A stretch of 64,000 nucleotides of DNA. Source: a virus. The translations under genes were made by a program, and so were the position numbers. This document shows positions 29,976-57,133 of this stretch, in pieces. The notes below the pieces were generated by a model. That model did not search any database. It saw only the letters and a program-made list of their open reading frames with translations, and was not told the DNA's origin. The stretch spans positions 32,001 to 96,000 of IMG/VR virus record IMGVR_UViG_3300035670_000030; one strand, given 5' to 3'. Position 1 is the first letter of the stretch; each line of letters starts with the position of its first letter.

Positions 29976-30389
29976 CTAAATTTCTATATCAAATTTTTCT
30001 TTTATCCATTCTTGAGATAACAAGTGAATTTCATTTTCAAAAATTTCAATAACTTTAAAATTATTCATTTCTAACCAAGAGTACTTTTGTAGGTCTCTTT
30101 TAACACTATTTTTAAATCCCGTTTTTGTTCTATGAAAATGTTTGACAAACTTATCATGTTGCAACCCATGTGTTTCTACGGCAATTTTTTTTGTAAAATT
30201 AATAAGATCACATCTCATTCTTGTTCCAAATACTGGAAACTCTTCCACTACCACATGGGTACCCCAGTATGTTTCAAAAAATTTTTTTACATTAAATTGA
30301 ACTTTACTTTTGCAAGCTTTGTCCCAATCAACTAAAAATTTGTTAATATTTTTATTAACTTCTTTCCCAAAGATATTTTTAAATTTCAT
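29976..30389 (-). CDS. DUF559/Vsr-like endonuclease
   Basis: EEFPV..RCDL..IAVETHGLQH..RDLQK..WL. Confidence 0.75.
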   Translation of the reverse strand: MKFKNIFGKEVNKNINKFLVDWDKACKSKVQFNVKKFFETYWGTHVVVEEFPVFGTRMRCDLINFTKKIAVETHGLQHDKFVKHFHRTKTGFKNSVKRDLQKYSWLEMNNFKVIEIFENEIHLLSQEWIKEKFDIEI

Positions 30390-31218
30390 TTAAACTTTCG
30401 ATTGATTTAATTATAAATTGAACTACACCAATTTTGGAGGTAATATTTTTAAAATAAGTATCTACATATTGTTTTTTAGTTTCATATTCAGAAATTAAGT
30501 GTTGTATTAAATCATCATTGATGTCATTCCATGAATTTATTGCATAAGCCAAAGGATTTTGCTTTTCAAAGAAAAGAGAATGATAGTCATTTTTAGGATA
30601 TATAGCAATGTTTCTACAATATAGAGATTCAAAATATCTATAAGATGTTGTATGCAAACCTCCAGCTGGACATAGCATAATTTTTGAATTTATGGCTATA
30701 TTTAAATAGTCTTCTGGTGCTAAATCCTGTTCAAAAGATTGAAGGTTGTTTCCAGTTGTAAAATGAAAATAATTATTTCCATTTAATTTTTTAATAGCAT
30801 TTACAAATTCAAATCTTGAAGGATGTATGAAACCAGCAAAAAAACAATCATACTTACGCTCATTAAATGGAATGAAATCTAATCCCTTTTTTATTGTTTT
30901 ATTAACAAACTTATTTAGCCCCAATGGAAAAGGTAAATATCTTTTATCGGGAGAATTAATTAAAAAATTACTAAAACATAATAAAAAATTATCTGTATTT
31001 AATTTCGTTCTAGCTTCGCTACCACTTAAAAAAATAATGTTATTTTGTGTTTCTGGTTGAAAGTCGGTCTTATTGGTGACATAAAAATTATATTTTGAAT
31101 GAGAAAAATAGTCGGCAACAAATTCCACTATCTCTAATAGATAATCCATCTCATCTGGAATGATTGATCCGCCTCCAAGATAATCAGCATAATAATTATA
31201 TAAATTTGTTAATTTCAT
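30379..31218 (-). CDS. exostosin (GT47)-like glycosyltransferase
   Basis: CFFAG..R, YL...NSKIMLCPAG...SYRYFESL. Confidence 0.65.
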   Translation of the reverse strand: MKLTNLYNYYADYLGGGSIIPDEMDYLLEIVEFVADYFSHSKYNFYVTNKTDFQPETQNNIIFLSGSEARTKLNTDNFLLCFSNFLINSPDKRYLPFPLGLNKFVNKTIKKGLDFIPFNERKYDCFFAGFIHPSRFEFVNAIKKLNGNNYFHFTTGNNLQSFEQDLAPEDYLNIAINSKIMLCPAGGLHTTSYRYFESLYCRNIAIYPKNDYHSLFFEKQNPLAYAINSWNDINDDLIQHLISEYETKKQYVDTYFKNITSKIGVVQFIIKSIESLNEI

Positions 31219-31220
31219 TT

Positions 31221-31751
31221 TTATTTATAGAAAATTACGCTATTATATTCATTCTTGATCTTATCTCTTAAATCTATAATATTAAAATCTGAAAATTCTT
31301 GTTTTAATACTTCAAAAGCTTTTGAATATACATCTTCTAAGATTATAAGAGAATCTGAATCCTTTAACAATAACGGATAATTTTTTAAAAAAAATTGTTG
31401 GGTTTCTAAGGTGTGCGGTCCATCATCAATAATTATATCAAATTTTCCAAAAGCTTCTTGAACTTTATTAATAAATTCTAAAGAATATGCATTTCCAAAA
31501 ATAATCTTGACTCTTTCTCCGAAAGAGTGCTCAATAATATTTTGAATATCGATACCAAAAATTTCAGCATTTGGAAAATATTCTTCCCATAACTTAAGTG
31601 AATGCCCTTGTAAAATACCTATTTCTAATATTTTGATTTTTTTATCTTTGAAAGGTTTAAATTTTTCATTATAAAAATTTGAAATATAAGTATGTGTTCT
31701 CTCTTTATCAGAGTCATTTTTTGTTTTCCTATATAATTCTATTAAATCCAT
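31221..31751 (-). CDS. class I SAM-dependent methyltransferase (sugar O-methyltransferase-like)
   Basis: HTY..Y, ILEIGI, GIDI, FDIIIDDGPH, IILED. Confidence 0.85.
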   Translation of the reverse strand: MDLIELYRKTKNDSDKERTHTYISNFYNEKFKPFKDKKIKILEIGILQGHSLKLWEEYFPNAEIFGIDIQNIIEHSFGERVKIIFGNAYSLEFINKVQEAFGKFDIIIDDGPHTLETQQFFLKNYPLLLKDSDSLIILEDVYSKAFEVLKQEFSDFNIIDLRDKIKNEYNSVIFYK

Positions 31752-31756
31752 ATATT

Positions 31757-32323
31757 TTATTTTATTGCGATTTTATTGAACGGCAGGGAATTATATATTT
31801 TATATCCGTGAGATTCTAATTTTCTTTCCAATGCTTCTCCAATTGGTCCAAAATTATGAGTTCCGTCTGAATGAATATATTCATATTCTATAAAAGAAAT
31901 ATTAAATCTATTTAAATCCAAAGAATTTAAAATTTTACAATCTAATCCTTCAGTATCAATATACAATCTATCAAGATTAAATATCTGGTGTTTTTCTAAA
32001 AATTTATCTAACTTTATGGCGAGTATTTTTTTTGATATCATTTCTGTTTGAAAAAGTTTAGAATGATTTTTATTGATAGAAGATGTCTGTCCTTCTTGTA
32101 TATTTTTTGGGTAGAAAAATTCTACTTCATTGATATCATCATCGACAATTGCCATTTCATAAAATTTAACAAAATCTAACTTAGAATAAAGCTGTTTAGC
32201 CATAATTAAGGCTTCAGATAAAGGTTCTATTAAATAAAGTTCGGTAATTTTATCTTTATTTGATGATACATATTCATAAACATGATCATTGCCATCGTAA
32301 CATCCAATTTGTAATATTTTCAT
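31757..32323 (-). CDS. FkbM family methyltransferase
   Basis: LQIGCYDG, LIEP, IDTEGLD. Confidence 0.85.
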   Translation of the reverse strand: MKILQIGCYDGNDHVYEYVSSNKDKITELYLIEPLSEALIMAKQLYSKLDFVKFYEMAIVDDDINEVEFFYPKNIQEGQTSSINKNHSKLFQTEMISKKILAIKLDKFLEKHQIFNLDRLYIDTEGLDCKILNSLDLNRFNISFIEYEYIHSDGTHNFGPIGEALERKLESHGYKIYNSLPFNKIAIK

Positions 32324-33024: not shown

Positions 33025-33026
33025 AC

Positions 33027-33545
33027 TTATTTTTTAGTACCATAAATCATTAGATTTAAATTATGAGATCTCGGATTATGAATTAAAGCTTGGTCAATTT
33101 GATCATATTCAATATTATCTACTTTTATATTATTGAGTTGAAGAATTTGCGTTAATATAGAGGAATTATATGCACATTTATGAAAATCTTCGCATTTGGA
33201 TTCTTGGTTAATCCAACTTAATCCTGCAAAAATCATATGATTTAAATCTTCAATTGACCATATTCCTTTAATATATGCTTCTAATTGTTTATCGATATTA
33301 ATTGTTTGTATAAAAATTTTACCACCACTTTTTAAAACTCTGGACCATTCTCTTATAGCGTTTTTACCATCAATTAATGGCATATGTTCTAGCACATCTT
33401 TAGCATATATCTCATCTACAGATTCATCTTGTAAAAAAGATAGGTCACGAACATCTGATTTTTTTACTAATGGATGGTCATATAAATCTACATTAATATA
33501 ACCATCTTTAATATCTTGGGCACATCCTAAATTTAATTTTATCAT
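33027..33545 (-). CDS. SAM-dependent methyltransferase (type 11)
   Basis: KLNLGCA, YINVD, VDEIYA..VLEH, RVLKSGG. Confidence 0.85.
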   Translation of the reverse strand: MIKLNLGCAQDIKDGYINVDLYDHPLVKKSDVRDLSFLQDESVDEIYAKDVLEHMPLIDGKNAIREWSRVLKSGGKIFIQTINIDKQLEAYIKGIWSIEDLNHMIFAGLSWINQESKCEDFHKCAYNSSILTQILQLNNIKVDNIEYDQIDQALIHNPRSHNLNLMIYGTKK

Positions 33546-34546
33546 AAAACACTTTCTTTTAACATGGTTGATATTTCATTTTTAACATGAAATTTTTTGG
33601 ACATATTAAAAATAATATTAGAGTCAAATTTATATTCTAAATTTATATTAAGATTATTCAAATCTAATTTAAATCCATTAATTCCATTTTCAATTAATTC
33701 ATTTATTGAACCATAATTAGATCCATACACTGGAGTTCCTTTTGAATAACTTTCTAAAACTGTTCTACCCAATGCTTCTGGTAATCGTGTCGGCATAAAA
33801 AATCCACGCGCCTTTTGAAAAACATGCTTATGATTTTGACCTCTTTTTAAAGGACCTTTAAATTCAAAATTTGATATATTTAAATTATATAAATAATTTG
33901 CTAATTGATCATTGCCAGAACCATATGCTATAAATTTATGATTTTTATTACGTATTGCTGTTTCTATAAAAATATCTAAGCCTTTACTTTCTAAACCCCA
34001 CTGTAAGCCAGCACACCATAAAAAATAATCTTCTTTATTAACCTCTAGATCAAATTCTTTATCTTCTAAGCCTGTATAACAAAAAAAACTTTTTTCTTTT
34101 TCCCAGTCTTCTTTTACCCAATTATGAAATTGAAATTGTGAAATAAATCTATATTTTACGTTATCATAATTTTTCATCCAGCCGTACTGTTTATTACAGC
34201 TATCTTGAAATGTGCATATAATAGGTTTTTTAAATTGCAATAATGGCTCAATACTCCAATGGCTTTGAGTCCATATAACATCAAAATCTAAATTTTTTAA
34301 AATTTTAGCGACAGAATAGGCATAGAATGAGCTATTTCTTTTTGAAATTGATGTGGGTTCTTCTTCTGTTTCATAAACTTCAAATGGGTATTCTTTTGTA
34401 TTGACCCTTTTAGGACATACAACAAAAAAATTTTGTTTTTCATTATAAAGACCAGCTGCTAAATTTTCTACGCATGTTTCGATTCCACCATAGCCATCTA
34501 ATGGAAATTGTTGTAAATAATCATTTCCAATAACGGCAATTTTCAT
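33542..34546 (-). CDS. GT4 glycosyltransferase
   Basis: GYGGIE, KGLD, EALGRTVLES...GTPV (Ex7E). Confidence 0.88.
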   Translation of the reverse strand: MKIAVIGNDYLQQFPLDGYGGIETCVENLAAGLYNEKQNFFVVCPKRVNTKEYPFEVYETEEEPTSISKRNSSFYAYSVAKILKNLDFDVIWTQSHWSIEPLLQFKKPIICTFQDSCNKQYGWMKNYDNVKYRFISQFQFHNWVKEDWEKEKSFFCYTGLEDKEFDLEVNKEDYFLWCAGLQWGLESKGLDIFIETAIRNKNHKFIAYGSGNDQLANYLYNLNISNFEFKGPLKRGQNHKHVFQKARGFFMPTRLPEALGRTVLESYSKGTPVYGSNYGSINELIENGINGFKLDLNNLNINLEYKFDSNIIFNMSKKFHVKNEISTMLKESVL

Positions 34547-35313
34547 ATACTCAGATTGTGTTCTTGATAATTTTCTTGAAAATCTTCTATAGATTTGTGA
34601 ACTTTATGTTTTGGGTCTTCCCCTCCAGATTCTACTTTCCAATGTTTTTCCCAGAAATTTTTATTTCTTAATATCCTGTTACTCAAATTCATATATCCAG
34701 TATGAATTACAAATGGATAATTTTTTGTTCTTAATGACTCTATATCAGAAGGCGTTTGAATAGAATAAACTAGATTACCATTTTCGTCGATTAATTCGCA
34801 TGTATCGCTTTTAGATGTATCTATAGTACCATCCAATTTTTTAGCAAAATTTACGGCACCACGGTACAATCCTTTTTTATGCATATACCATTTTGGAGTA
34901 ATTGAAAAATAATGATGGTTATCTTTATAAAGATTCACTGATGGAATCATTACAGATTTTGATGGAGAATATATTAATTGATTGCCAATATTTTCCCAAA
35001 TATGTCTTTGCCATAATGGTATATATTCATCCATATCAAGACCTATCTTTATGTCTTGTTTTGTGGCTTGTAAAGCTGCATTTTTTATTTTCCCATCAAG
35101 TAATGGATCATCATAACTAAAATTTGTTTCTAAAATATATACATTATCACAATTTTCAATTATAAAATCACGAACTTCATTTACAGAGTCATCTTCGCTT
35201 GTATTTATTGCAATAACAACTTCATCCGCAAATTGAGAAAAATTCTGGATATGGAATCTATAATTAAATTTGTTCTTAATTAAATTAAATGCAGATGTAT
35301 AAATTGAAAACAT
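34543..35313 (-). CDS. GT2-like glycosyltransferase
   Basis: FADEVVI..SEDDS, KNAAL, LDMDE (DxD), HTGY. Confidence 0.75.
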   Translation of the reverse strand: MFSIYTSAFNLIKNKFNYRFHIQNFSQFADEVVIAINTSEDDSVNEVRDFIIENCDNVYILETNFSYDDPLLDGKIKNAALQATKQDIKIGLDMDEYIPLWQRHIWENIGNQLIYSPSKSVMIPSVNLYKDNHHYFSITPKWYMHKKGLYRGAVNFAKKLDGTIDTSKSDTCELIDENGNLVYSIQTPSDIESLRTKNYPFVIHTGYMNLSNRILRNKNFWEKHWKVESGGEDPKHKVHKSIEDFQENYQEHNLSI

Positions 35314-36950: not shown

Positions 36951-37982
36951 TTAAATATTTTTCATATCAAAGCTTATCATTTCTTGAATTAGGCTGTCAA
37001 ATGAAATTTCTGGAAACCATCCCAATTTTTTTCTAGCTTTATCTGATTTTCCTAATAAAAGATCTACTTCAGCTGGCCTATAAAATAAAGGATTAATTTG
37101 TACTAAAATTCTATCTTTATAAATAAATTTTTCATTTATACCCTCTCCAGTCCAAAAACCTTGTATATCAATAAATTTAAAAGTTTTATCAATAAATTCT
37201 TTTACAGTATGTGTCTCGCCAGAAGATAAAATATATTCTATAGGTTTATCTTGATTTAACATCATCCATATTCCACGCACAAAATCTTTCGCATGACTCC
37301 AATCCCGTTTTGCATAAATATTACCTAATTCTAGTGGTTTAAATTCTTCATTATAATTTAATGCTTTATTTATTTTTGCGATCTCTTTGGTAATTTTTTT
37401 TGTGACGAATTCTTCTCCACGTCTAGGGCTTTCATGGTTGTATAATAAACCCTGAATTGCAAATAAATTATAACTTTCTCTATATACTTTTACTATATGT
37501 CTCGCGGCAGCTTTTGCGGCACCATATGGACTTCTAGGTTTTAATGGATGATTTTCGTCTTGAGGACTATAATCTACATCGCCTAACTCTTCTGAAGATC
37601 CAGCATTATAAAATCTACAATTAGGAACATGTTTTCTAATTGCTTCTAAACATCTAATTACACCCATTGAGCCAACATCAAAAGTTTGTTCTGGAATTTG
37701 CCACGAAGCGCCAACAAAACTTTGAGCAGCTAAGTTAATAAAATAATCTGGACCTATTTCTCTAACAATATTATCGATAGATTGAGAATCAGTAAGATCT
37801 CCAGTCACTAATTTAAATTTAGGGTTATTTAACAAATGCTTAATATTATGATGATTGTTAGTAGAGGCTCTTCTTACCATGCCATAAACTTCATGACCAG
37901 TATTATCTAATAAATAATCGGCCATGTAACTGCCATCCTGACCAGTTACCCCTGTTATTAAAATTTTTTTAGGCGTATTCAT
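36951..37982 (-). CDS. gmd: GDP-mannose 4,6-dehydratase
   Basis: ITGVTGQDGSY, NLAAQSFV, SSEE, SPYGAAK, NHESPRRGEEFVT, RPAEVDLL. Confidence 0.96.
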   Translation of the reverse strand: MNTPKKILITGVTGQDGSYMADYLLDNTGHEVYGMVRRASTNNHHNIKHLLNNPKFKLVTGDLTDSQSIDNIVREIGPDYFINLAAQSFVGASWQIPEQTFDVGSMGVIRCLEAIRKHVPNCRFYNAGSSEELGDVDYSPQDENHPLKPRSPYGAAKAAARHIVKVYRESYNLFAIQGLLYNHESPRRGEEFVTKKITKEIAKINKALNYNEEFKPLELGNIYAKRDWSHAKDFVRGIWMMLNQDKPIEYILSSGETHTVKEFIDKTFKFIDIQGFWTGEGINEKFIYKDRILVQINPLFYRPAEVDLLLGKSDKARKKLGWFPEISFDSLIQEMISFDMKNI

Positions 37983-42960: not shown

Positions 42961-43074
42961 GATTTTTTAAAAAATCATAATATTATCTTTGTGAGCAAAG
43001 CGAACAAATCGAAGCCGAACGAAGTGAGGTTTCGAAAAAGAAATGTTCCTTTACTTTAACTTTTTTTAAAGTAA
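42961..43074. other. hairpin/palindrome cluster at strand switch, candidate origin or ssDNA signal
   Basis: 16-bp palindrome 42961-42976; hairpins 42988-43008 and 43009-43035 with GA/GA internal pairs; inverted repeat TTACTTTAA/TTAAAGTAA 43051-43074. Confidence 0.5.
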
Positions 43075-45842: not shown

Positions 45843-45843
45843 A

Positions 45844-47846: not shown

Positions 47847-49680
47847 TTTTTGGTGGAAAGATATTATTTTTATCAAAATCATCTCTTTGCCACTCTAAGA
47901 GTTCAAAACTTGGCTGCTTAAGGTAACTAATTTTAAAAGTATTATTTATCTCTTTCTCAAAAGAGAGTTCTTTACAATCTTTATTGTCAAAGATAAATTC
48001 TTGTTCTTTTAGTCTAAATACTTCAATATCAAATGAATTATTAGATAATTTTATTTGACATTTAGTTTTTTCAAATTCTAATTCTTTTTCTTCTTCTGCA
48101 CAGTCACTAGTTTTATACTTTGGTGGATCAATCTGAATTGTATCACTAGTTGTTAAAATATAATTTATAGACATCGGATTAGTAGAACCTATTCTGTCAT
48201 AATTATCGTTTGTTGTTGCTAATATGCTTGCTGGACTCTCAGTATTTAGCATACTTACAATATCATCTTCTTCTAGTAATTTTAAAATATTCAACATTAA
48301 TTCAGCATTTTGACCAACTGTATAAGAAGAAGTTTGTGCGCTTGATGATGACGATGACGATGATGAACTACTTATATCTTCACATTCTGTATCTTCACAA
48401 TTTTTATCTTTATCTATAATAGATCCGTATAAATATATTTCATGGTAAAGCTCAAAAAAACACATATATATTTTTTTACTTCTGATATAAAATAAGTCAG
48501 AAATGTAAAAATCTAAATATTGGTAAGTAGAATCTACAATACTATTATTATTATTTATATTATATTTTGCAGATCCAAATTTAGTAAATTCTTTTTCAAA
48601 GTTTTTTTGTTTATCAACAATATCTGGTGTTAAAGGGGATACTCCGCCAAGGTCATAAGTATGTTTATTAATTACAGATAAAACATTATCAATATTTCCA
48701 AAAATATCTGAAAAAGGATTTTGCGATATAATGACAGGGTCATTTATAAATGTAGAGTTAAAATTAAATTTATTACTATTTTGAAAAATAGATTTAAATG
48801 CGTTTGAATCAAAAGCCCATTCATCTTTAAAGATCTTAGTATTTGAATTATAAAGTAATTCTTCTTTATTTTTATCTTCTTTAATATTAATAATGGTTTC
48901 ATAATTTACAGAGTCAGCGCCTAATCTTTTTTGAAGCTCTTGAAAATCAAAAATTTTTGTAGAATTAAAATTTATATTATGTTTAATTTTTTGATTATAT
49001 TCAATTGGTTTATACCATACTACTGTAGCTTCTATTCTAACATTTGCTCCTAATGTATCTACAGCTGTAAATGATAAGGTTGATAAAGGTGTTTTTGGAA
49101 TTAAGTTCTGATTAAATGCTGATGCAGCATTTCCATCTGTAATTTTTGTACCATTTAAATAGCCTATATCATCAGCCACACCAACTGCTTTAAAATATGT
49201 TGGACTACCATCTGGACTATTAAAAACTATAGGCCCAGCAGTATCTCCAGCTTCCGCTCCACCATCTTTAAAATCTCTTTTACATTCCGGACATTCTGGT
49301 GAAAAATTATTTCCTTTTGATTCTATTTCTATATCAGAATTAATTATAACACCTTTAATCATTTTATGAAATAGTCCTTTATATTTATAAAATTCTGTTT
49401 CTGGAATTATAAGATAATTTTTACAAAATTTATTTGGAAATTCTAATTTATCAAATAGTGTAGAACCATATTTATTTTTTTTATACCATTTAAAAACCTC
49501 TTCCTCAGTTTCAAATTCTTTCGGCTTTTCTACGCTTGAATCCGGATCTTTTTCTGCAAAAGACGCTCTAAAAAAATGAATTGGAACATCGCTTATACGC
49601 CTATCTATAGAAAATTCTGGACGATACCCAAAATTACTATAAATACCATGAAAAACATGTTTATTTATTTTTGTCGCCAT
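47839..49680 (-). CDS. putative virion protein with poly-Ser tract
   Basis: Last gene of the structural operon; S10 tract and a motif shared with 51323-54181. Confidence 0.65.
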   Translation of the reverse strand: MATKINKHVFHGIYSNFGYRPEFSIDRRISDVPIHFFRASFAEKDPDSSVEKPKEFETEEEVFKWYKKNKYGSTLFDKLEFPNKFCKNYLIIPETEFYKYKGLFHKMIKGVIINSDIEIESKGNNFSPECPECKRDFKDGGAEAGDTAGPIVFNSPDGSPTYFKAVGVADDIGYLNGTKITDGNAASAFNQNLIPKTPLSTLSFTAVDTLGANVRIEATVVWYKPIEYNQKIKHNINFNSTKIFDFQELQKRLGADSVNYETIINIKEDKNKEELLYNSNTKIFKDEWAFDSNAFKSIFQNSNKFNFNSTFINDPVIISQNPFSDIFGNIDNVLSVINKHTYDLGGVSPLTPDIVDKQKNFEKEFTKFGSAKYNINNNNSIVDSTYQYLDFYISDLFYIRSKKIYMCFFELYHEIYLYGSIIDKDKNCEDTECEDISSSSSSSSSSSAQTSSYTVGQNAELMLNILKLLEEDDIVSMLNTESPASILATTNDNYDRIGSTNPMSINYILTTSDTIQIDPPKYKTSDCAEEEKELEFEKTKCQIKLSNNSFDIEVFRLKEQEFIFDNKDCKELSFEKEINNTFKISYLKQPSFELLEWQRDDFDKNNIFPPKIT

Positions 49681-50264: not shown

Positions 50265-51320
50265 TTATCCTTCTAAAATATCTGTGAAAAATATATTATT
50301 TCCACTAATAATATATTGGAATTTATTTCCAAAAATATTATATGGATTTGGTTTATATATTTCAATATTTAAGCCAGTATAGATTGTAGATTGATTTAAT
50401 GGTATAATACCAGATCCTGAAAATTGACTAATACCAGTATTAAAAGATATTGGAACGCCAGAATAATTTTGTGGGTTTCTCGGATCTTTAAACCCTGTTA
50501 ATATTGTATAATTTCCACTAAAACTATCTTCCCAAAGAATACCTGATATATTTTTAAATAACTCTATAGGCTCTACTTGTTTAGTATAAAAACCAGAATT
50601 TTCAACAGTAATATTAAAAACGCCTGAAAAAGAACCAATCCAAGAATTAGCTCTTGGTCTATAACTTTCTCCGCCAGTAAAATATCTATTGTGAATTTTA
50701 ATTGACTCTAAATTACTAGAGTCTCTATAAATTCTAAGATCATTGCCATTTTCTCCTTCTCGTAAATAAGAAAATAAAAATAGTTTATTGTCTATTTGAT
50801 AACCAGTAACCCCAACAATTGTTTGTAATAAAGTATATCCTTGATCATTAAATCCTCCTGTTGCTCCAGAATTTAAATTATTTAATAAATTTAAAGGAGA
50901 ACTAAATTGACCTGGATTATCTGCTCCAGTATTATAATAAAATAAGAAATCAGCTATACTTATATAATCTCCATTTTGAAGTCCAGACCCCGTATTATCT
51001 ATAAATTCTATGATATTTTGAGCTGATTTAAAACCTGTAACATAATTAAGATAAACTCTTGTTTGTTGACCTGGATGAGTTAATTGTAAGTTTTGCCAAG
51101 TATATGAACCACTTCCATCTCCAATATAACCATTTAAAACACCAGTTGTAAAATAAATAACTGGCTGTAATCCAGTTGGATTTAAAATAGTTCCAGTAAA
51201 AATTTGATTATCAAAAGAAGTAATATAACCATGCCCACGATATGAATTGATTGTTGTATTTATACGGTTATCAATGGTATGATAAAAATCTACTTTTTTT
51301 ATCCTAATAATCTCAGACAT
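50265..51320 (-). CDS. putative virion protein, Thr-Gly/Ser-Gly rich
   Basis: Many TG/SG dipeptides; structural operon. Confidence 0.6.
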   Translation of the reverse strand: MSEIIRIKKVDFYHTIDNRINTTINSYRGHGYITSFDNQIFTGTILNPTGLQPVIYFTTGVLNGYIGDGSGSYTWQNLQLTHPGQQTRVYLNYVTGFKSAQNIIEFIDNTGSGLQNGDYISIADFLFYYNTGADNPGQFSSPLNLLNNLNSGATGGFNDQGYTLLQTIVGVTGYQIDNKLFLFSYLREGENGNDLRIYRDSSNLESIKIHNRYFTGGESYRPRANSWIGSFSGVFNITVENSGFYTKQVEPIELFKNISGILWEDSFSGNYTILTGFKDPRNPQNYSGVPISFNTGISQFSGSGIIPLNQSTIYTGLNIEIYKPNPYNIFGNKFQYIISGNNIFFTDILEG

Positions 51321-51322
51321 AA

Positions 51323-54181
51323 TTATTTATTAGTCAAGTTAATAATTTCGTCATCTTCTAAGAGTTTCAAAATATTTAACATCAATTCAGCGCTTTGCCC
51401 TACTGTGTAAGAAGAAAAAGATGAAGGTTCTTGAATTGACGAAGACGAAGATGAAGATGAGGACGATTGACAACATGGATCTAATTGGCATGGGCATGTT
51501 GGCGGATCTGATACTTTAACACACTGATAACAAATATCATTACCTCCAGGACAATTAACAATTTGAGTTTGTGCTTTAAGATATCCTTTTTCAATAAATT
51601 TATCTAGTCTAAATGGAATTGGAGTTTTCCAAGCATTGACATCTGTACATTGTTTTGGATCACATACGAATAATTCAGCAGCCGGAAAGCTCATTTCTTC
51701 TTCGCAATTAAATGCTTGTTGCTGCCAACTAAATTCAGCTGGGTCAGCATCATTTGCGCAATTATAATTCAAACAACATACATCTCTATTATCATTAATT
51801 TCAGTACAGTCTGCATTTTTTTCTACATATTGCCAACAAGGATTTTTAAAAACTACGTCTGGCAATCCTACTTCTTTTAAATTTTCACAGCAATCACAAA
51901 TCGGGCATTTGCTCTCATTTTCTTTATAATATCTTCCACAAGATAGTTCTCTAAATGATTGCCATTCGGCTTCCATTGTGTAAGGTTCGCTAGATATGTT
52001 AAGTGTATAATTATTAAATTCTGACTGCCCATCTTGACAACTACTCAACCTACTATTAATAGTACCATTTAATTTAGCAACTATAGATGGATTCAATGAG
52101 CTAGCACAAATTGTTCTAATAAAATCATCTGAAACCTCAATATCTGCAGTATTTTCAAGTAACCCCTGATTAATTCTACCACCTTGTCCTTGATAAGTTT
52201 TACCTAAAAATACAAATGACATTGTTAGACTTGTATGGTCACATTCAATAGGACTACTTTTTCCAAGTACAGAAATTTTAACCTTATCTGTACTACAATA
52301 AGGAACTGCACTTACTATTTCTACAGTTGGGGGCATTTCACAACAACTATACTCTGGTGATGGTGTTGGGGTTGGAGTAGGTGTTGGGGTTGGAGTGGGT
52401 GTTGGGGTTGGAGTAGGTGTTGGGGTTGGAGTAGGTGTTGGGGAAGGTGACGGCGATGGTCCTGTAGTACAATCTGCTTGAGTAGTGCTATTATCAATAA
52501 CAAAATCATTTTGAACAAGTTCTTCAACTTGAGCGATCTCATTGACAATATTAAAATTAACTTTTGAATCTACAAATAAAGCACAATCTGGAACTATGCT
52601 TGTGCAATAACATTGTCTAATTATAACAGATGAAGTGCCTAATTGCGTTGGAGTTCCTTCTATTAAATTACTTTTTACTGTCGATAACGTTAATCCATTT
52701 GGTAAAGATCCACTTATAACACTCCAACTATTTGGTAACAACCCAAAACTTCTCCACAAATTTTCTTCTAAATCAATTCCATGATCCACAAGACAGCCTG
52801 GGGTATTGATACTATTCACAATTAATAAATTAGATGGAGTCCATCTAGGAGTATTTATTAAAAGATTTAATGTCTGTTCATTAGATAATCTTGCTAATGT
52901 TTGTAAATTAGGTGAGCTTGAACTAGAGCTCTCACCACCTCCACCGACACATTCAAATATTAATCTACTATTATCTACAGAATACAAATTTCCGGTAGAA
53001 GTAGGAGAATTTGTTATATTAATATTGACAAAAGAATCTCTATATATTAAGCATGGTGGATACAATCCAGTACAGTAACATTGACGTATTAATACTTTTC
53101 TACTTTCAGATTGTGTTGGTGTCCCTGTTATAAGCCCAAATGCGCCAGTTGATAATGTTAAACCAGCAGGCAGGGAACCAGAAATTATATTCCAAGTATT
53201 TGGAACAAGACCAGTAGTTTGCCATAAATTATTATTAGGAGCTATAAAACTAAAAAATACGTTACCAACTTGACCAGGTTGTAATACTGAAGGTAACTCA
53301 TTTACCAACATTGGTTGATTTAAGACACCGCTTAAAGTTTGCTCATTTGTCAAAACAGAAACAAATGTTTTTAATGGGTCTATACTAGAACTCGAACTTG
53401 AGCTCGAACCCAAGCTCGAACTTGAACTCGAGCTACTTGAGCAAGTAGGACATATATCATTCAGGCCCCATTTATTATTTAAATATTCACATAATTGTAA
53501 ACGTTCTTGACAAGTCATAGTTTTATTAAAAACCATTAACTCACCTAAATCATAACTATAACCTTCTTGAAAAATTCCCGATAAACCAATAGTACCACCA
53601 GGTTTTTGAGCATTAATTCTTTCATCATTAAGATATTGGAAATTATTTAAATTTTTTATCTGATTTAATTTTTTAAATGTGTTACCATTTCGGCCAAAGT
53701 AGTTGCTTCCACTATAAATCCATTGGTCAACAATAAAATTTTCAGTACCCGTAAGACTTCCATAAGAATCAACAGCGAAACTAGGGCCTATAACCTTGTT
53801 ACCAGAAGTATACATTCCTATAAAAACATTTGTTCCAGATCCGTTATCAATTGGCGTGTATACTGCTGCTAATTTTGATACGCCAGAAATACCAGAACAT
53901 GGTAAAGAAAATGGTATTAATGGAATATCATTTAATAGTTGAACATTATCCCATTTATGCACAAAAACTATATGTAATGGAATATTTAAATCAATTACTG
54001 GAAATTCTTCGTTAATTAATTCGCCACTAGAATTAATTCTAATAAAATCTATACCATTTCCAGAATAATAGCCAAATGATTGCGTGACACCAGCCATACC
54101 AGTTACGCCAGTCATTTTGAATAAGAAATTATTCTCAGATTTATCTCTAATTCCTGAAATTGTACCAATAAAATTAACCAT
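51323..54181 (-). CDS. putative fibre/adhesin: LamG-like, two He_PIG-like Ig repeats, poly-Ser and Pro-Thr linkers, Cys-rich C-terminus
   Basis: LGELMVFN..ER..YLNNKWGL; duplicated W.(I/V)ISGSLP.GLTLST...GTPTQ; (PT)n; more than 30 Cys. Confidence 0.7.
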   Translation of the reverse strand: MVNFIGTISGIRDKSENNFLFKMTGVTGMAGVTQSFGYYSGNGIDFIRINSSGELINEEFPVIDLNIPLHIVFVHKWDNVQLLNDIPLIPFSLPCSGISGVSKLAAVYTPIDNGSGTNVFIGMYTSGNKVIGPSFAVDSYGSLTGTENFIVDQWIYSGSNYFGRNGNTFKKLNQIKNLNNFQYLNDERINAQKPGGTIGLSGIFQEGYSYDLGELMVFNKTMTCQERLQLCEYLNNKWGLNDICPTCSSSSSSSSSLGSSSSSSSSIDPLKTFVSVLTNEQTLSGVLNQPMLVNELPSVLQPGQVGNVFFSFIAPNNNLWQTTGLVPNTWNIISGSLPAGLTLSTGAFGLITGTPTQSESRKVLIRQCYCTGLYPPCLIYRDSFVNINITNSPTSTGNLYSVDNSRLIFECVGGGGESSSSSSPNLQTLARLSNEQTLNLLINTPRWTPSNLLIVNSINTPGCLVDHGIDLEENLWRSFGLLPNSWSVISGSLPNGLTLSTVKSNLIEGTPTQLGTSSVIIRQCYCTSIVPDCALFVDSKVNFNIVNEIAQVEELVQNDFVIDNSTTQADCTTGPSPSPSPTPTPTPTPTPTPTPTPTPTPTPTPTPSPEYSCCEMPPTVEIVSAVPYCSTDKVKISVLGKSSPIECDHTSLTMSFVFLGKTYQGQGGRINQGLLENTADIEVSDDFIRTICASSLNPSIVAKLNGTINSRLSSCQDGQSEFNNYTLNISSEPYTMEAEWQSFRELSCGRYYKENESKCPICDCCENLKEVGLPDVVFKNPCWQYVEKNADCTEINDNRDVCCLNYNCANDADPAEFSWQQQAFNCEEEMSFPAAELFVCDPKQCTDVNAWKTPIPFRLDKFIEKGYLKAQTQIVNCPGGNDICYQCVKVSDPPTCPCQLDPCCQSSSSSSSSSSIQEPSSFSSYTVGQSAELMLNILKLLEDDEIINLTNK
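52362..52442. repeat. 18-bp tandem repeat (about 4.5 copies) encoding Pro-Thr linker
   Basis: GGTGTTGGGGTTGGAGTR x4 plus a half unit. Confidence 0.9.
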
Positions 54182-54210
54182 TTTTACCTTTTTCCTTATA
54201 TATGTTACAC
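54182..54210 (-). promoter_or_regulatory. GTGTAA late promoter plus AAGGAAAAAGG leader element
   Basis: GTGTAACATATATAAGGAAAAAGGTAAAA then ATG. Confidence 0.55.
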
Positions 54211-54253
54211 TTAAAAAATATTATTATATAATTTTAAAATTAAATATTTAATT

Positions 54254-57133
54254 TTATAAACTACTCGATGACGAAGTACTCGATAATGAGCTACTCGACG
54301 AATTTTCTAATATAATATCGTTATTTTCCGGATCTACCCATAAAGTATTTACGATTAAAGTCTCAGAACTTGACGAAGAACTACTCGATGACGAACTACT
54401 CGACAATGAACTGCTAGATGACGAACTACTCGAGGACGAACTAGAATTAAGATCTAAAAATAATATATTAGATGATCCTTCTGGATCTATCCATAAATTT
54501 GAACTAAATAATGATTCTGGTAAACTAGAACTACTACTACTACTACTTGGGAATCCTGCGCAAGTAAAATAACGATTGTCACATTCGCTATCCCATTCAA
54601 TTTCACAGCAAACAAAATCAGCATCAATAACCTCCTGATAACAAATATTATTAGTGTCAATATAACTAGGAGGAATTACCGTGCAACCAAAAGAAGAACT
54701 AGAACTAGACGTAATATTTTTATTAAATATAAATTTTAAAGATTTGCATCCAGTGATGATATCAAAATTTAAATTAAGATTACCAGTATTACTATAATTT
54801 TCATAAATTGTGTTATAATTATTATTATCTCTTGAAAATTGAAGTATTACTCCAGTTGGAATAAAACCACTCTCAAACTCAATATTAAACCCAGTAAAAT
54901 CAAAAAATTTATTAGTAACAGAGTAACCTAAAAATAAATCATTATTTATATCTCCAGATATTTCTCCATAAGGATAAATATTTTTATTTTCATTAAAAGC
55001 ATACCAAGCTGGATATGATAAAGAATCATTACTATAAAAAACTTCCCCAGAAAAAGAATTATTATTTAAAATTCCCCCTGAAGGATTATTATATCCAGTT
55101 AAATTTGGAGCAACAGGATAAACAGAAAAAAATTCTGAATTATTTATAGTAACTGGTATTCCTGTGTATAACTCAATTTTTCTAAATCCTATTCCACTAC
55201 TTGATTTTTGACCCGTAAAATTATGAGGCCAATTTTGTCCAGACTTAATTTCAATTCTAGCATAATTATAACTAGCATTATTATTAATTAATTGATCGGC
55301 ATTATTACATTCTAGTATTATTTGTTGTGGATATTCATAGAAATTTAAATCTTCACTTCTTAGAAAAAGCCCGTTACCAGACCGACTATCTATTGTTGTC
55401 CATGGGCCTTCTCTATTAATTGATAATTGTAAATCAAAATTATATGGATATTTTAAAGCATTAAAGTCTAACTCAAAAGAATAAAAAGATATTTTACTTT
55501 TTATTGATGGTTCATAAAATTTAAAGAATATTCCTATATCGCCAGTATTTCCAGTTAAATAAAAATATTCATTACCAATAAATGCTTTATCTGACAAAGA
55601 GTTATTTTCAGATGCAAATCCACTTCCACCATATATAAATAACCCCTCTTCTTGATTAATTATCGGATTTAACAAAACGCCAGTAGATTCGTTTATTATT
55701 ATATTGCCTAAATTAATCTCTCCAGAATTATTAGAAATTATATTTCCAAATAAAAGTCCTGTTAGTCCTACAATTTTATTTCCAGATCCAGTATAATTTA
55801 AACCAGTAATATTATTTGATTCCCAAAATAATTTTTTATTATATAAAAAATAATCTCCAGTATAATAACCAGAACCAGTTAAACTTTGTAGTCCTGTTTT
55901 AATATTTATACTATTAAAATAAAAACCTGTTAGATTAATATTTCTTGTTTCTGAAAATAACCCGTACCCATAGACAAAACCAGTTAAGGGTGAATTTAAG
56001 AATCCTGTAGCTGTAATTAAAGTTCCTTCTGGAGAATTTCCTGTTCCACTAGCCCCAAGTAATGGCAAACGATATTGGTAATTAAGTTCTCCCGTGGCAA
56101 ATTGTAGTTCTCTATAGCTTTCTGATAAAATGCCTGTCGGAAATTGGTTATAGTAATCTCTTTCTAAAAAAGAAGTGCCTAAACCTGTTAAAACGCCAGT
56201 AATATAATCAAAACCATATATAAATCCAGATGCGTTTCCACTTATAAAACCACTTGCGGCAAATTCTCCAAGAATTAATTCACCAGTATGCCCAGAAATA
56301 TTTTTTATTAATATTGTTACGTTTAGTGGGTCTGGATATATCGTTCTTAATTCAAAATTATAATATTGCCCAAAAGTAAAATTATCAATAAGACCTGTTC
56401 CGCCAGTATAGCCTGTAAATAAATCAATAAAATAAACTGGCCCTGGAATCGAATCAAAAGAGATAGTATTTTGAATATTCCCAAAATTAGTATTTAAAAA
56501 TAAAGTAGCTAAAGACGGAGTAACTTCATTAATACTAACTTGATCGTCAAATTCTGGTTTTAAAATTATTTGACCAGATTGATTTCCAGATATGATAAAT
56601 AATGGTAAACTTTGGATTTCATAATCTGTATTTTCATTAAATAAAGTGCCGCTAAAAATTCTAAAGGATTTTTGAGATTCATTTTCTAAATTCTTAATAA
56701 CTCCAGTTAAGTTTTGTCCAAAAAAACCACTTTTTGGAAAGATTATATTATAATTTGGCTTATCTCCTTGAATATAAAAATCGTATTCAATTTCAGAGCC
56801 AGTAGTTTTTACATAAAAATAATCATAGTATGAATTGTCCAATTTCGGAGAAAATAAACATACTGGATTTTGATTTATAAAATAATTAATATATCCAGAA
56901 CCAATATTTCCGGAAAAGCTTACTACTTCTCTTGGATTATAAGACCATACATATTTGTTATTAAAATCAAAAATATTTCCATCTTTAAAGGAGAAGATTT
57001 GTAATGTTTTTTCATCTCCTGAAAAACCAATTTCTGAAACACCAGAACAAGTAGAATTTGTAGCATTAAATGAAAAAGAAAATTCATTTTGTGCTGCAAA
57101 ATTTCTATACTGTATTCCAGAAGTAATAATCAT
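54254..57133 (-). CDS. putative virion protein with discoidin-like domains and poly-Ser tail
   Basis: SG/TG-rich body, YPAWYAFN, FDLQLS..GPWTTID; C-terminal Ser tracts and LW(I/V)DPE repeat. Confidence 0.65.
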   Translation of the reverse strand: MIITSGIQYRNFAAQNEFSFSFNATNSTCSGVSEIGFSGDEKTLQIFSFKDGNIFDFNNKYVWSYNPREVVSFSGNIGSGYINYFINQNPVCLFSPKLDNSYYDYFYVKTTGSEIEYDFYIQGDKPNYNIIFPKSGFFGQNLTGVIKNLENESQKSFRIFSGTLFNENTDYEIQSLPLFIISGNQSGQIILKPEFDDQVSINEVTPSLATLFLNTNFGNIQNTISFDSIPGPVYFIDLFTGYTGGTGLIDNFTFGQYYNFELRTIYPDPLNVTILIKNISGHTGELILGEFAASGFISGNASGFIYGFDYITGVLTGLGTSFLERDYYNQFPTGILSESYRELQFATGELNYQYRLPLLGASGTGNSPEGTLITATGFLNSPLTGFVYGYGLFSETRNINLTGFYFNSINIKTGLQSLTGSGYYTGDYFLYNKKLFWESNNITGLNYTGSGNKIVGLTGLLFGNIISNNSGEINLGNIIINESTGVLLNPIINQEEGLFIYGGSGFASENNSLSDKAFIGNEYFYLTGNTGDIGIFFKFYEPSIKSKISFYSFELDFNALKYPYNFDLQLSINREGPWTTIDSRSGNGLFLRSEDLNFYEYPQQIILECNNADQLINNNASYNYARIEIKSGQNWPHNFTGQKSSSGIGFRKIELYTGIPVTINNSEFFSVYPVAPNLTGYNNPSGGILNNNSFSGEVFYSNDSLSYPAWYAFNENKNIYPYGEISGDINNDLFLGYSVTNKFFDFTGFNIEFESGFIPTGVILQFSRDNNNYNTIYENYSNTGNLNLNFDIITGCKSLKFIFNKNITSSSSSSFGCTVIPPSYIDTNNICYQEVIDADFVCCEIEWDSECDNRYFTCAGFPSSSSSSSSLPESLFSSNLWIDPEGSSNILFLDLNSSSSSSSSSSSSSLSSSSSSSSSSSSSETLIVNTLWVDPENNDIILENSSSSSLSSTSSSSSL

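Follow-up and report, generated by a model that had tools for sequence, protein, structure and literature searches.

Glycan and tail genes at the locus

The window, by which the whole analysed stretch of 64,000 nucleotides of a 143.7-kb phage genome is meant, carries a sugar-gene island adjoining UvsX, a gene for GDP-mannose 4,6-dehydratase (Gmd), a glycosyltransferase (GT) operon and a tail module with poly-Ser proteins (Table 1). An initial annotation had read them as a cytoplasmic pathway coating the virion with glycans on dedicated Ser-rich acceptors, and they were compared here across about 25 related phage records from a near clade and distant clades. The lineage is widespread, uncultured and from water; no cultured relative was found, and the host is probably Gram-negative.

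Table 1. Glycan-related and tail-module features of the window
Position	Strand	Feature	Basis
14171..14740	-	Sulfotransferase (Sulfotransfer_2)	PF03567 at 14195-14713, E 1.4e-17, 60.9 bits
14884..15774	-	WcbI-like (weak)	PF18588, E 2.9e-6, 27.5 bits (cut-off 29.2)
30379..31218	-	RXYLT1_C-like putative glycosyltransferase, first island gene	PF24785, E 7.7e-6, 25.9 bits (cut-off 27)
31221..31751	-	Methyltransferase-like (weak)	FtsJ E 2e-4, Methyltransf_31 E 2.4e-3, both below cut-off
31757..32323	-	FkbM-family methyltransferase	PF05050, E 3.2e-11, 44 bits; TIGR01444
32320..33024	-	GT32-type DXD glycosyltransferase (Gly_transf_sug)	PF04488, E 1.1e-17; phrog_28262, E 4.8e-21
33027..33545	-	SAM methyltransferase (Methyltransf_11)	PF08241, E 2.1e-8
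33542..34546	-	GT4 glycosyltransferase	PF13692, PF00534, PF13439, all above cut-off
34543..35313	-	GT-A/GT2-like protein, last island gene, adjoins UvsX	Family profile matches
36951..37997	-	Gmd	PF16363, E 5e-115
40935..42023	-	Conserved 362-aa glycosyltransferase	phrog_2170 'glycosyltransferase', E 9.5e-14
43074..43472	+	Small membrane protein, heads GT operon	3 hydrophobic segments, SCxxC within one
43479..43913	+	Conserved 144-aa protein	No family match
43923..45842	+	GT4 domain, then DUF4214, then GT9 N-lobe; predicted first chain of enzyme (639 aa)	phrog_2170, DUF4214
45844..47049	+	GT9 C-lobe and C-terminal half without match; predicted second chain (401 aa)	PF01075, 28.4 bits (cut-off 22)
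47088..47846	+	Conserved 252-aa protein, last GT-operon gene	Present in all clades
47839..49680	-	Tail-module protein, S11 then 24-aa helix motif	Synteny
50265..51320	-	[ST]G-rich tail-module protein (351 aa)	SG z 4.4, TG z 5.5
51323..54181	-	Tail-module protein, S9, S8, S6, S10 and (PS)3(PT)13PS linker	Synteny
54254..57133	-	Tail-module protein, S6, S8, S13, S13, S5, S5	Synteny
59571..61565	-	[ST]G-rich tail-module protein (664 aa)	SG z 6.0, TG z 7.2

A hypervariable island beside UvsX

The UvsX slot is a hypervariable sugar-gene island, holding 5-13 genes over 3.9-9.4 kb in all 17 loci with both flanks visible, and clustering of 150 slot proteins gives 83 families, of which 48 have a single member. 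By Pfam, FkbM is the commonest family in the relatives' islands (15 of 143 proteins), followed by GT2 (9), Gmd-type (8), GT1 (7), GT17 and NTP-transferase (5 each), and DegT and UDP-GlcNAc 2-epimerase (4 each).

The GT32 and GT4 genes of the initial annotation were confirmed, the GT4 being 63% identical in G004 and without homologue in the close relative G001, and two of its three methyltransferases, FkbM and Methyltransf_11, were upheld, the third remaining a weak candidate. For the first island gene, called GT47-like, the RXYLT1_C match below cut-off suggests a glycosyltransferase, but no exostosin/GT47 family was matched in the Pfam search; among the relatives it recurs in G001 only (83% identical). 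The 'GT2' label of the last gene is marginal: a 29-sequence profile matches the GT-A enzymes TarS (5tze, E 7.8e-4) and chondroitin synthase (E 0.038), but no Pfam domain was found in the protein or its 313 homologues.

The island lies in a string of replication and nucleotide-metabolism genes, which counts against a virion target. This placement, between dNMP kinase/helicase genes and UvsX/RNR, would be explained if the transferases modified hydroxymethylated bases in the phage DNA in a T-even-like manner, and a 2OG-Fe(II) oxygenase-like gene at 1241-2140 (below cut-off) points the same way. DNA glycosylation is nevertheless most improbable, since a ThyA-type hydroxymethylase was found in none of five genomes (positive control detected in 10/14 genomes), only ThyX is present, Tet_JBP was likewise found in 0/5 (a weak result, its control being silent everywhere), and the aminotransferases, epimerases, O-methyltransferases and sulfotransferases fit complex glycans.

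A conserved kit with a split glycosyltransferase

Every related record reaching that far carries a kit of Gmd, the 362-aa GT and a two-chain GT4-DUF4214-GT9 enzyme. The Gmd gene, confirmed as annotated, occurs in 19/19 UvsX-anchored loci (53-80% identity), and the 362-aa GT in 16 of these 19, the remaining three being incomplete, with 42-53% identity in distant clades. The two further GT4s and the GT9 annotated at 40935-47049 were borne out by phrog_2170, matching the 362-aa protein and the N-half of the 639-aa protein, and by PF01075.

In the 639-aa protein, phrog_2170 spans residues 14-340, DUF4214 458-502 and a weak GT9 N-lobe match 536-587; it has 2988 homologues, the close ones with PF00534 and DUF4214. 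The family profile of the GT9 C-lobe in the 401-aa protein matches the LPS heptosyltransferase WaaF (1psw, E 7.6e-7). In the distant clade G022/G023 both proteins are one ORF of 1014-1037 aa, in which residues 634-1010 correspond collinearly to 3-369 of the 401-aa protein (fusion seen in L065/L066), and the two are, judged by sequence, two chains of one enzyme.

With the exception of G022/G023, every clade examined has the membrane protein at the head of the operon, with its motif. Identity of the 144-aa protein is 86-96% among near-clade loci and falls to 31-53% further away, and no Pfam domain was found among 1630 homologues of the 252-aa protein, whose gene end overlaps that of the last tail gene. 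The operon adjoins virion genes in three genome layouts, with the sigma or DnaE side on the left and tail fibres on the right, and in G022/G023, the most distant clade, it runs co-directionally between a sigma-like gene and neck/tail genes.

This neighbourhood counts for a virion target. Against it count the conserved three-segment membrane protein and the candidate late motif GTGTAA, which precedes at least 11 virion genes and none of the glycan genes, sigma70-like boxes taking its place at two operon genes. Such early-type boxes, and the 144-aa and 252-aa partners without family match, would also suit a kit that serves host takeover and is unrelated to virion and envelope alike, its products being glycosylated host proteins or small molecules, or else a free or secreted oligosaccharide. 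No observation points to this directly, and it is improbable, given that the virion-gene neighbourhood is kept in all three layouts and that strain-level hypervariability, as in the island, is rather a mark of exposed surfaces under selection.

Outlying sugar genes and the question of export

Further left, the annotated sulfotransferase was verified as part of a two-gene mini-island missing from G001, which also has no homologue of the WcbI-like protein; the WcbI match exists but falls short of its cut-off. The 'GT-A-like' gene placed in this region is probably 11753-12553, with DUF6734 as its only match, and a second sulfotransferase lies outside the window. The toolkit, including Gmd, methyltransferases and two sulfotransferases, is large and real, as annotated, with some family labels weak.

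The reported lack of a flippase, polymerase or exporter agrees with a Kyte-Doolittle scan, in which no ORF of this genome or of the complete relative G001 has more than four hydrophobic segments, and therefore no Wzx/Wzy-like protein is encoded. GtrA and a multi-pass membrane enzyme or initiating transferase were not found, and a tyrosine integrase occurs in 0/5 genomes, four of them complete. All GTs are soluble, which counts for a virion target.

The main rival is remodelling of host LPS/LOS, which we consider somewhat less likely than a virion target. On the cytoplasmic side of the inner membrane, the GT9 and GT4 enzyme and the island transferases would modify lipid A-core or Und-PP-linked intermediates, and host MsbA/Lpt or Wzx/Wzy would export the phage-specified LOS or O-chain, which could block superinfection or keep progeny from adsorbing to debris; the poly-Ser tracts would be plain flexible tethers. 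GT9, its C-lobe nearest WaaF, GT4, with RfaG-like as the automatic name of related clusters, WcbI and Sulfotransfer_2 all belong to envelope-glycan families and count against a virion target, and the membrane protein heading the operon and the motif-less glycan genes among replication genes also suit the envelope.

The missing integrase, GtrA, multi-pass enzyme and initiating transferase argue against this rival; the verified cases of O-antigen conversion by phages known so far all rely on membrane proteins, and the phages are temperate. Moreover, the kit of G022/G023 lies inside the virion gene array without the membrane protein, and kit conservation is 45-92% among phages with almost nothing in common in their tail fibres, so that the acceptor would need to be strongly conserved in the host.

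Poly-Ser tail proteins

The long poly-Ser tracts annotated in three proteins were all recovered, as was the (Pro-Thr)n linker. Counted downstream from a 2000-aa tape-measure ORF, their genes come 5th, 6th and 9th, and the genome has only one further run of at least five Ser. Their putative structural status comes from synteny only; Pfam, PHROGs and PDB sequence searches gave a single match, the He_PIG Ig domain.

The tract start coincides exactly with the end of tail-protein homology, and the tracts would therefore tether swapped distal modules. Conservation of the S11 protein in G001 is limited to the first 125 residues. The linker-bearing protein has Ig-like repeats (the He_PIG match) and a Cys-rich C-terminal region, and its G001 counterpart has a PS-only linker and tracts up to S26. 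In the protein at 54254..57133, residues 1-787 are a conserved anchor and the C-terminal 150 alternate poly-Ser runs with short motifs, the runs of the G001 orthologue reaching S111. The envelope rival gains from bacterial carbohydrases, in which poly-Ser linkers are common, unmodified-looking tethers (PMC2386152).

The annotated Ser-Gly/Thr-Gly richness is real in three proteins, of 351, 959 and 664 aa, with z from 4.3 to 11.2 vs residue shuffles; the same shuffles gave no GS/GT enrichment, and it reads as a probable structural repeat. Its interpretation as a proteoglycan attachment motif is not supported, as [ST]G is directional and repeat-like and the RXYLT1-like match is below threshold.

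Tracts and sugar genes across relatives

Poly-Ser tracts are confined to the near clade, where only about one member in two has them. Kit and sugar island are present without S/T tract (counts of 0-7, the noise level, vs 18-194) in at least 10 related records, including the 100%-complete G003, G014, G016 and G020 and the 92%-complete G023. Since complete genomes keep the kit without tracts, poly-Ser is not its obligatory or primary acceptor, and the claim of dedicated Ser-rich acceptors is not supported; the kit's independence of the tracts also favours the envelope rival.

Tract presence requires 3 changes on a 5-protein core tree, a number as low in 2/500 shuffles, and follows island type in all three; the tract-less G003 and G005, nested among tract-bearing genomes, have D-type or D-like islands as in the tract-less outgroup clade. 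This co-variation hints at coupling on a basis of 3 changes, 2 of which involve lenient tract calls in adjacent rows (x17 and x27, only S5-S7). No enzyme family or superfamily was common to the tract-bearing island types A, B and C yet missing from D. Island type co-varying with tail-fibre distal modules is as expected of a phage editing its own receptor, which favours the envelope rival; host-surface remodelling is also the hypothesis put forward for GT-rich hypervariable tail-fibre regions of pelagimyophages (PMC7029224).

Proposed pathway

The conserved kit, the hypervariable UvsX-slot island and the tract distribution among about 25 related records are new here, and gene content, its conservation and variability and the split or fused GT are likewise directly established. 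We favour, with a probability of about 0.4, a self-contained cytoplasmic glycan-building system encoded by the phage and most likely directed at its own virion; acceptor, glycan and all reaction steps are those we infer. Gmd would turn host GDP-mannose into GDP-4-keto-6-deoxymannose, and the core set of 362-aa GT and two-chain enzyme would assemble the inner, conserved part of the glycan on an acceptor shared throughout the lineage. The island would then extend and decorate this glycan strain-specifically, in this genome through RXYLT1-like, GT32, GT4 and GT-A-like transferases and two or three methyltransferases, with additions by the sulfotransferase and WcbI-like gene inside the window and the second sulfotransferase outside it. 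The poly-Ser (and PS/PT) tethers of the three tail proteins' distal modules may serve, in the present phage and roughly half of those closely related to it, as facultative extra glycan carriers rather than the glycan's reason for being.

Comparison with known systems

Phage O-antigen conversion by gtrABC/Oac is carried out by membrane proteins of temperate phages; the likeness lies in a phage changing a surface glycan, but GtrA, an integrase and a multi-pass protein are missing here.

Shared with pelagimyophages and cyanomyophages, large lytic aquatic phages, are many LPS-type GT/sugar genes in variable regions adjoining tail-fibre genes, yet these are myoviruses with GT8-dominated sets, for which host O-chain modification is proposed, and the passages considered describe no poly-Ser link or conserved split GT4-GT9 enzyme (PMC7029224). 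Soluble GTs that O-glycosylate Ser-rich stretches of surface fibres intracellularly are described for the serine-rich repeat glycoproteins of Gram-positive bacteria (PMC7948813, PMC6973325); in place of long SRR domains the present tail proteins have homopolymeric linkers, 5-13 residues in length and reaching 111 in G001, no GtfA/GtfB-type pair or DUF1975 was detected in the Pfam search, and a weak GT-D match was confined to relatives' type-B islands. The TibC/AAH autotransporter heptosyltransferases, which are GT9-type-like, place heptose onto protein Ser in the cytoplasm, and a GT9 match therefore does not imply LPS (PMC4358343), although the matches of the GT9-lobe profile up to E 10 included WaaF and an uncharacterised GT9 and no TibC chain.

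The verified virus-encoded soluble multi-gene glycan kits considered here have the virion as target (PMC7019647, PMC10117803, PMC12363180), a precedent that supports a virion target here. The chlorovirus capsid carries a conserved glycan core and a virus-specific outer part, made with GMD and a multi-domain GT and methyltransferase (PMC7019647), and Megavirinae fibrils depend on clade-specific clusters of 6-33 genes (PMC10117803). Shared with these toolkits are a virus GMD, multi-domain GTs with methyltransferases, a conserved inner and a virus- or clade-specific outer part, and clustered sugar-nucleotide/GT genes differing by clade; the likeness is at the level of enzyme superfamilies, to eukaryotic giant viruses with experimentally solved glycans, and there the sugars are attached to capsid Asn or fibril proteins rather than to poly-Ser tethers.

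Mycobacteriophages Che8, Corndog and Myrna likewise use soluble phage GTs in the cytoplasm on their own proteins, with capsid and tail tube glycosylated (as cited in PMC12363180). Their glycans are demonstrated, whereas the present system is known from genes alone and its host is probably Gram-negative, and the kit here is much larger, with a sugar-nucleotide enzyme, methyl- and sulfotransferases and a hypervariable island.

Genome setting and closest relatives

The window spans positions 32001-96000 of a single virus record of 143,730 bp, has a GC content of ~29% and comes with three tRNA genes. Siphovirus-like gene order and one He_PIG Ig match are the grounds for regarding the three poly-Ser proteins as structural, with no fold or family match beyond these: Pfam and PHROGs returned nothing else for the nine tail-module proteins, and the PDB, searched with the single sequences of the 952- and 959-aa proteins, yielded low-complexity linker matches at most. 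TerL was the only head gene recognised by PHROGs, nine of the ten head/neck proteins being without a match.

Megablast of 24 kb recovered no cultured relative, and the DnaE sequence does not exceed 28% identity with any phage record. In tblastn searches of 50,697 phage records, the GT32 and the 362-aa glycosyltransferase (GT) had zero matches, and the 639-aa GT had only 24%-identical ones in three cyanophage genomes (four records), too distant for these phages to count as relatives. In one of them, the cultured cyanosiphovirus Synechococcus phage S-CBS4, the GT4 homologue lies with a galactosyltransferase and a SAM methyltransferase between portal and head-protease genes, a neighbourhood that offers a possible testable model for virion glycosylation; in S-EIVl the distant homologue adjoins the primase gene. 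The only host hint, a weak one, is a pair of contigs of 1.6-1.7 kb (L112 and L113) which carry the 639-aa gene and are binned into Bacteroidota MAGs labelled uncultured Bacteroidetes and Chitinophagia. The closest relative, G001 (178,478 bp, with direct terminal repeats), has proteins that are mostly 75-97% identical, and is missing the GT4, sulfotransferase and WcbI-like genes.

Table. Positions of the features discussed (window coordinates unless marked otherwise)
Feature	Position	Details
2OG-Fe(II) oxygenase-like gene	1241-2140	PF13640, E 2.3e-5, below cut-off
Sulfotransferase	14195-14713 (gene 14171-14740)	Sulfotransfer_2, 60.9 bits vs cut-off 22
Replication block	17004-29939	three-piece DnaE, DnaB, primase, exonuclease, dNMP kinase
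Gene in window	20407-21609	GTGTAA upstream
Sugar-gene island	30379-35313	beside UvsX
GT47-like gene	30379-31218	RXYLT1_C, 25.9 bits, below cut-off 27
Methyltransferase	31757-32323	FkbM, above cut-off
GT32-type gene	32320-33024	Gly_transf_sug, above curated Pfam cut-off
Methyltransferase	33027-33545	Methyltransf_11, above cut-off
GT4	33542-34546	above curated Pfam cut-off
GT2 of the initial annotation	34543-35313	
Gmd	36951-37997	above curated Pfam cut-off
362-aa GT	40935-42023	
GT operon	43074-47846	plus strand
132-aa membrane protein	43074-43472	first gene of GT operon
TTGACA-16-TATAAT	43887-43914	perfect match
639- and 401-aa genes	43923-47049	
GT9	45844-47049	Glyco_transf_9, above curated cut-off
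613-aa tail protein	47839-49680	poly-Ser
Helix-like motif, 613-aa protein	48259-48330	residues 451-474
952-aa tail protein	51323-54181	poly-Ser; GTGTAA upstream
Helix-like motif, 952-aa protein	51344-51415	residues 923-946
959-aa tail protein	54254-57133	poly-Ser
Gene in window	57136-59541	GTGTAA upstream
2000-aa ORF, presumed tape measure	64795-70797, just past window end	minus strand
Nine ORFs downstream of the 2000-aa ORF		same strand; 545, 535, 664, 801, 959, 952, 351, 191, 613 aa
Four-ORF block	genome 18136-22037	289, 194, 268, 542 aa
Second Sulfotransfer_2 gene	genome 19027-19578	194-aa ORF, outside window
Orthologue of 959-aa protein, G001	81616-84912 (L010)	Ser runs of 34 and 111, uninterrupted
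Fused GT, G022 and G023	L065:9992-13105, L066:9992-13036	
GT-D-like gene, type-B island	L015:7633-8328	E 1.8e-4, weak, sub-threshold
GT neighbourhood, phage S-CBS4	9916-12282 of record (L045)	

Glycan genes and their family support

The toolkit is clustered and comprises Gmd, at least six GT-like genes and two or three methyltransferases. Searches against family profiles upheld the assignments of the initial annotation for the GT32-type, GT4, Gmd, GT9 and sulfotransferase genes, and for two of the three methyltransferases it had placed in the island; the third has a weaker FtsJ-like match. The gene called GT47-like has RXYLT1_C as its only family match, with zero exostosin and zero PDB sequence matches, and the WcbI-like gene has a weaker-grade match. 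For the gene called GT2, with zero Pfam matches, a 29-sequence profile found the GT-A enzyme TarS (E 7.8e-4), and D93-x-D95 is invariant in the 29 sequences. Both the 362-aa protein and the 639-aa protein, the latter in its N-terminal half, correspond to a PHROG labelled glycosyltransferase, and close homologues of the 639-aa protein carry PF00534 and DUF4214; single-sequence PDB searches of the 639-, 401- and 279-aa proteins found nothing beyond low-complexity linker matches.

The GT32, GT4 and GT9 proteins have no hydrophobic segments. Per ORF the number stays at four or below, both here and in the complete genome of G001, in agreement with the earlier statement that flippase, polymerase and exporter are missing. 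PF04138 (GtrA) had 0 matches up to E 10 in a search whose control responded in 13 of 14 genomes, and the small membrane protein of the GT operon, considered as a GtrA, was rejected on the same grounds.

A second Sulfotransfer_2 gene lies in a four-ORF block which is absent or nearly absent from G001 and may be a further variable glycan island. The oxygenase-like gene is of the prolyl-hydroxylase type, in a genome that has a PS/PT linker.

A conserved kit with a split glycosyltransferase

The IMG/VR loci were collected by a UvsX anchor (19) or a GT anchor (22), the metagenome loci numbering 41. Gmd was present in 19 of 19 UvsX-anchored loci and the 362-aa GT in 16, the remaining three being cut short. 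Homologues of the 639-aa protein in public metagenomes number 2988 (E<=0.001, large protein collection), and the plus-strand GT operon, encoding the small membrane protein and the 144-, 639-, 401- and 252-aa proteins, recurs in every clade reaching that far, marine contigs included, down to 45-56% identity.

In two relatives, G022 and G023, the homologues of the 639- and 401-aa proteins form one ORF of 1014-1037 aa, in which residues 1-626 of the former correspond to 4-629 and residues 3-369 of the latter to 634-1010. In this genome the GT9 domain is thus divided over two genes, whose products, by this Rosetta-stone evidence, very probably act together as a single GT4-DUF4214-GT9 enzyme. The naturally fused form of this GT is new. 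DUF4214 had also been considered as a docking domain common to the GT and the tail proteins, and was rejected when an HMM of the GT's DUF4214 region matched the GT alone.

The GT operon always adjoins virion genes. In most clades it and the last tail-fibre gene are convergent; the other neighbour in marine relatives is DnaE, not the sigma-like gene. In G022 and G023, one strand carries the sigma-like gene, the 362-aa GT, the fused GT and the 252-aa homologue, followed by homologues of the genes that separate the presumed capsid gene from the tape measure. This virion-gene neighbourhood favours the reading that the kit coats the phage's own virion with glycan. On the marine contigs L096 and L103 (45% identity), the trio (640, 396 and 249 aa) is kept, immediately preceded by the split DnaE genes and followed by a tail-fibre-like block.

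Other properties of the operon speak for remodelling of the host envelope, its LPS or LOS, by the kit and island. A 26-sequence profile of the GT9 lobe is nearest WaaF (E 7.6e-7), with 3tov at E 0.0058 and no TibC chain among its matches up to E 10. In addition, the operon is headed by the 132-aa protein, which has three hydrophobic segments, one of them containing an SCxxC motif, and zero family matches; its position and motif are conserved across clades, with the protein missing in G022 and G023.

Upstream signals also bear on the host-envelope reading. At least 11 virion-module genes, along with several others, have the sequence GTGTAA in AT-rich surroundings 5-32 nt ahead of their start codons, and none of the glycan genes is preceded by it. 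A perfect TTGACA-16-TATAAT, overlapping the end and stop codon of the 144-aa gene, stops 9 nt short of the start codon of the 639-aa gene and is kept in 14 of 14 near-clade sequences, and the 252-aa gene has a 10-of-12 sigma70-like match with TG upstream. Overall, the sigma70/terminator scan found promoter-like sites no more often than in shuffled sequence (108, shuffle mean 131). The missing GTGTAA and the sigma70-like boxes in the GT operon suggest that the kit falls outside the late class, which fits host remodelling. Sigma70-like boxes fit poorly with the Bacteroidota promoter consensus, and chlorovirus glycan genes are likewise not known to be late class.

A hypervariable sugar island

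The island occupies a slot bounded by a conserved 137-aa gene and UvsX, holding 5-13 other genes over 3.9-9.4 kb in all 17 loci with both flanks visible (the far flank is out of range in 2 of 19). Among 143 slot proteins, Pfam identified FkbM (15), GT2 (9), Gmd-type dehydratase/epimerase (8), GT1 (7), GT17 (5), nucleotidyltransferase (5), DegT aminotransferase (4), UDP-GlcNAc 2-epimerase (4) and DUF5672 (4). Together with the seven of this genome, the resulting 150 proteins fall into 83 families, of which 48 are singletons.

Four island types were distinguished: type A in this genome (G000) and G001, and partly in G004 and G008; type B in G002, G011, x17 and x28; type C in G006, G009 and G010; and type D in G003, G012, G014, G015 and G016, and partly in G013. 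The Jaccard index between types is usually 0. A type-B gene has a weak, sub-threshold match to a GT-D fold family known from serine-rich-repeat glycoprotein glycosylation, and G011, the one type-B genome that includes tail genes, carries poly-Ser tracts. The lineage-wide division into a conserved kit and a hypervariable island is new here, and this layout of conserved core and variable periphery counts in favour of virion coating.

Poly-Ser tracts in the tail proteins

The initial annotation was exactly right on the poly-Ser tracts and the (PS)3(PT)13 linker, and only one further run of S>=5 exists in the whole genome. The tracts are homopolymeric runs of 5-13 Ser (up to 111 in G001) at module junctions, encoded by mixed TCN and AGY codons with TCG at 20% against 4.6% elsewhere. 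G001 has tracts in the same three orthologues, and a PS linker in place of the PT linker; its orthologue of the 959-aa protein contains two uninterrupted runs, of 34 and 111 Ser. Ser-Gly had been proposed as a proteoglycan attachment signal; [ST]G dipeptides are indeed strongly enriched in three tail proteins, those of 351, 959 and 664 aa (z 4.3 to 11.2), but GS/GT are not, a pattern that looks like a structural repeat instead.

Tail modules turn over fast among relatives. Between tract-bearing and tract-less orthologues, homology covers the N-terminal 650-790 residues and ends just before the first tract, as in the 959-aa protein and the 1164-aa protein of G005 (residues 1-787, first tract at 809) or the 1440-aa protein of G011 and the 1389-aa protein of G003 (residues 1-703, first tract at 799). 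The tracts therefore sit where exchanged distal modules join on. Poly-Ser is familiar as an intermodule linker in bacterial carbohydrases (PMC2386152). A helix-like motif of ~24 aa follows a poly-Ser run in two otherwise unrelated tail proteins; searches of G001 and of other tail modules did not recover it.

Distribution of tracts and toolkit across relatives

Tail modules (20 kb) were taken from ten relatives, and a nine-codon WSN pattern was counted over whole records. Counts were 18-194 in G000, G001, G004, G006, G009, G010 and G011, and 0-7 in G003, G005, G012, G013, G014, G016 and G017-G023. Dedicated Ser-rich acceptors, as proposed earlier, should co-occur with the GTs; instead the tract-less G003, G014, G016 and G020 (all 100% complete) and G023 (92% complete) keep the kit and sugar-island genes, and no record examined lacks GTs. 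The conserved kit clearly does not need the tracts, an independence reported here for the first time and another point for host remodelling.

In a tree built from a concatenation of five conserved proteins (23 rows, with x17 and x27 scored tract-positive on runs of just S5-S7), tract presence takes three changes, as low a number occurring in only 2 of 500 label shuffles. G003 falls inside a starred clade with G000, G001, G004 and x17, and tract-bearers likewise surround G005; the islands of both are D-type or D-like, as in the tract-less outgroup clade. The island of G003 has Jaccard values of 0.25-0.36 with G012, G014 and G016, against 0 for types A and B, and that of G005 matches mainly G012, G003, G016, G015 and G014. 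All three tract changes are thus concordant with island type, although three events carry no statistical weight. The 41 metagenome loci, mostly not reaching both the island and the tract-bearing genes, gave context and no scorable rows. This island-type/tract link, also new, is small but concordant, and the co-variation argues for virion coating. No enzyme superfamily is common to types A, B and C yet missing from D, so the island offers no candidate poly-Ser transferase.

What the kit may glycosylate

Coating of the phage's own virion is the reading we favour, tentatively, with a probability of roughly 0.42. It is further favoured by the lack of lysogeny or membrane machinery and by precedent, since verified virus-encoded soluble multi-gene glycan kits have the virion as their target in three reports (PMC7019647; PMC10117803; PMC12363180). 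Host-envelope remodelling, which another report proposes as a hypothesis for similar regions of pelagimyophages (PMC7029224), we consider the main rival but less likely, and action of the kit on another acceptor quite improbable.

It is doubtful that the poly-Ser tethers themselves carry glycan. The fullest version of virion coating, on the whole unlikely, would be a lineage of large, very abundant freshwater and marine phages that puts strain-specific methylated, sulfated deoxyhexose glycans on its own tail fibres, where the conserved two-chain triple-domain transferase primes, a hypervariable 'serotype island' diversifies, and poly-Ser tethers are repeatedly recruited as mucin-like carriers. 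Such exchangeable sugar coats of phage particles would be analogous to bacterial O-antigen serotypes. A search of published article texts found none joining poly-Ser phage fibres and a glycosylation kit.

Should the kit coat the particle, a very abundant group of aquatic phages would join actinobacteriophages and giant viruses in having glycosylated virions. The island would then act as a phage 'serotype' locus and matter for adsorption, evasion of defence or grazing, and the reading of phage diversity from metagenomes. If it rewrites host LPS instead, it would be the first soluble, export-free route in lytic phages. Under either reading, the GT operon, the split and fused forms and the island-type/tract link are concrete handles for a co-expression test.

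Comparison with known systems

Phage seroconversion by gtrABC or Oac employs a GtrA flippase or a multi-pass transferase, both absent here (PF04138 0; at most four segments per ORF), and is found in temperate phages with an integrase, whereas tyrosine-type PF00589 occurs in 0 of 5 genomes of this lineage, four of them complete. T-even DNA glycosylation involves a ThyA-family hydroxymethylase or Tet/JBP; here PF00303 was found in 0 of 5 genomes, as was PF12851, for which the control was silent. With no hydroxymethylase, the alternative that the kit glycosylates DNA is highly improbable.

The SRRP system is primed by the GtfA/GtfB pair (GT4 with DUF1975), and no GT in the window has DUF1975. Its acceptor is a long Ser-rich repeat domain; the tracts here are homopolymeric Ser runs at module junctions and differ from SRR domains. 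Compared with TibC and AAH, of the BAHT family of protein heptosyltransferases (PMC4358343), the LPS heptosyltransferase WaaF is nearer the phage GT9 lobe.

Two further systems were compared at the level of genes. Mycobacteriophage virion glycosylation relies on phage-encoded soluble GTs, as seen here for the GT32, GT4 and GT9 genes above cut-offs, with no mycobacteriophage match in the tblastn searches of the GT32, 362-aa and 639-aa GTs. The autonomous toolkit of giant viruses likewise clusters a sugar-nucleotide enzyme with several GTs and a methyltransferase, and its conserved core with clade-specific variable genes resembles the conserved kit and the island of 83 families in 150 proteins described here.
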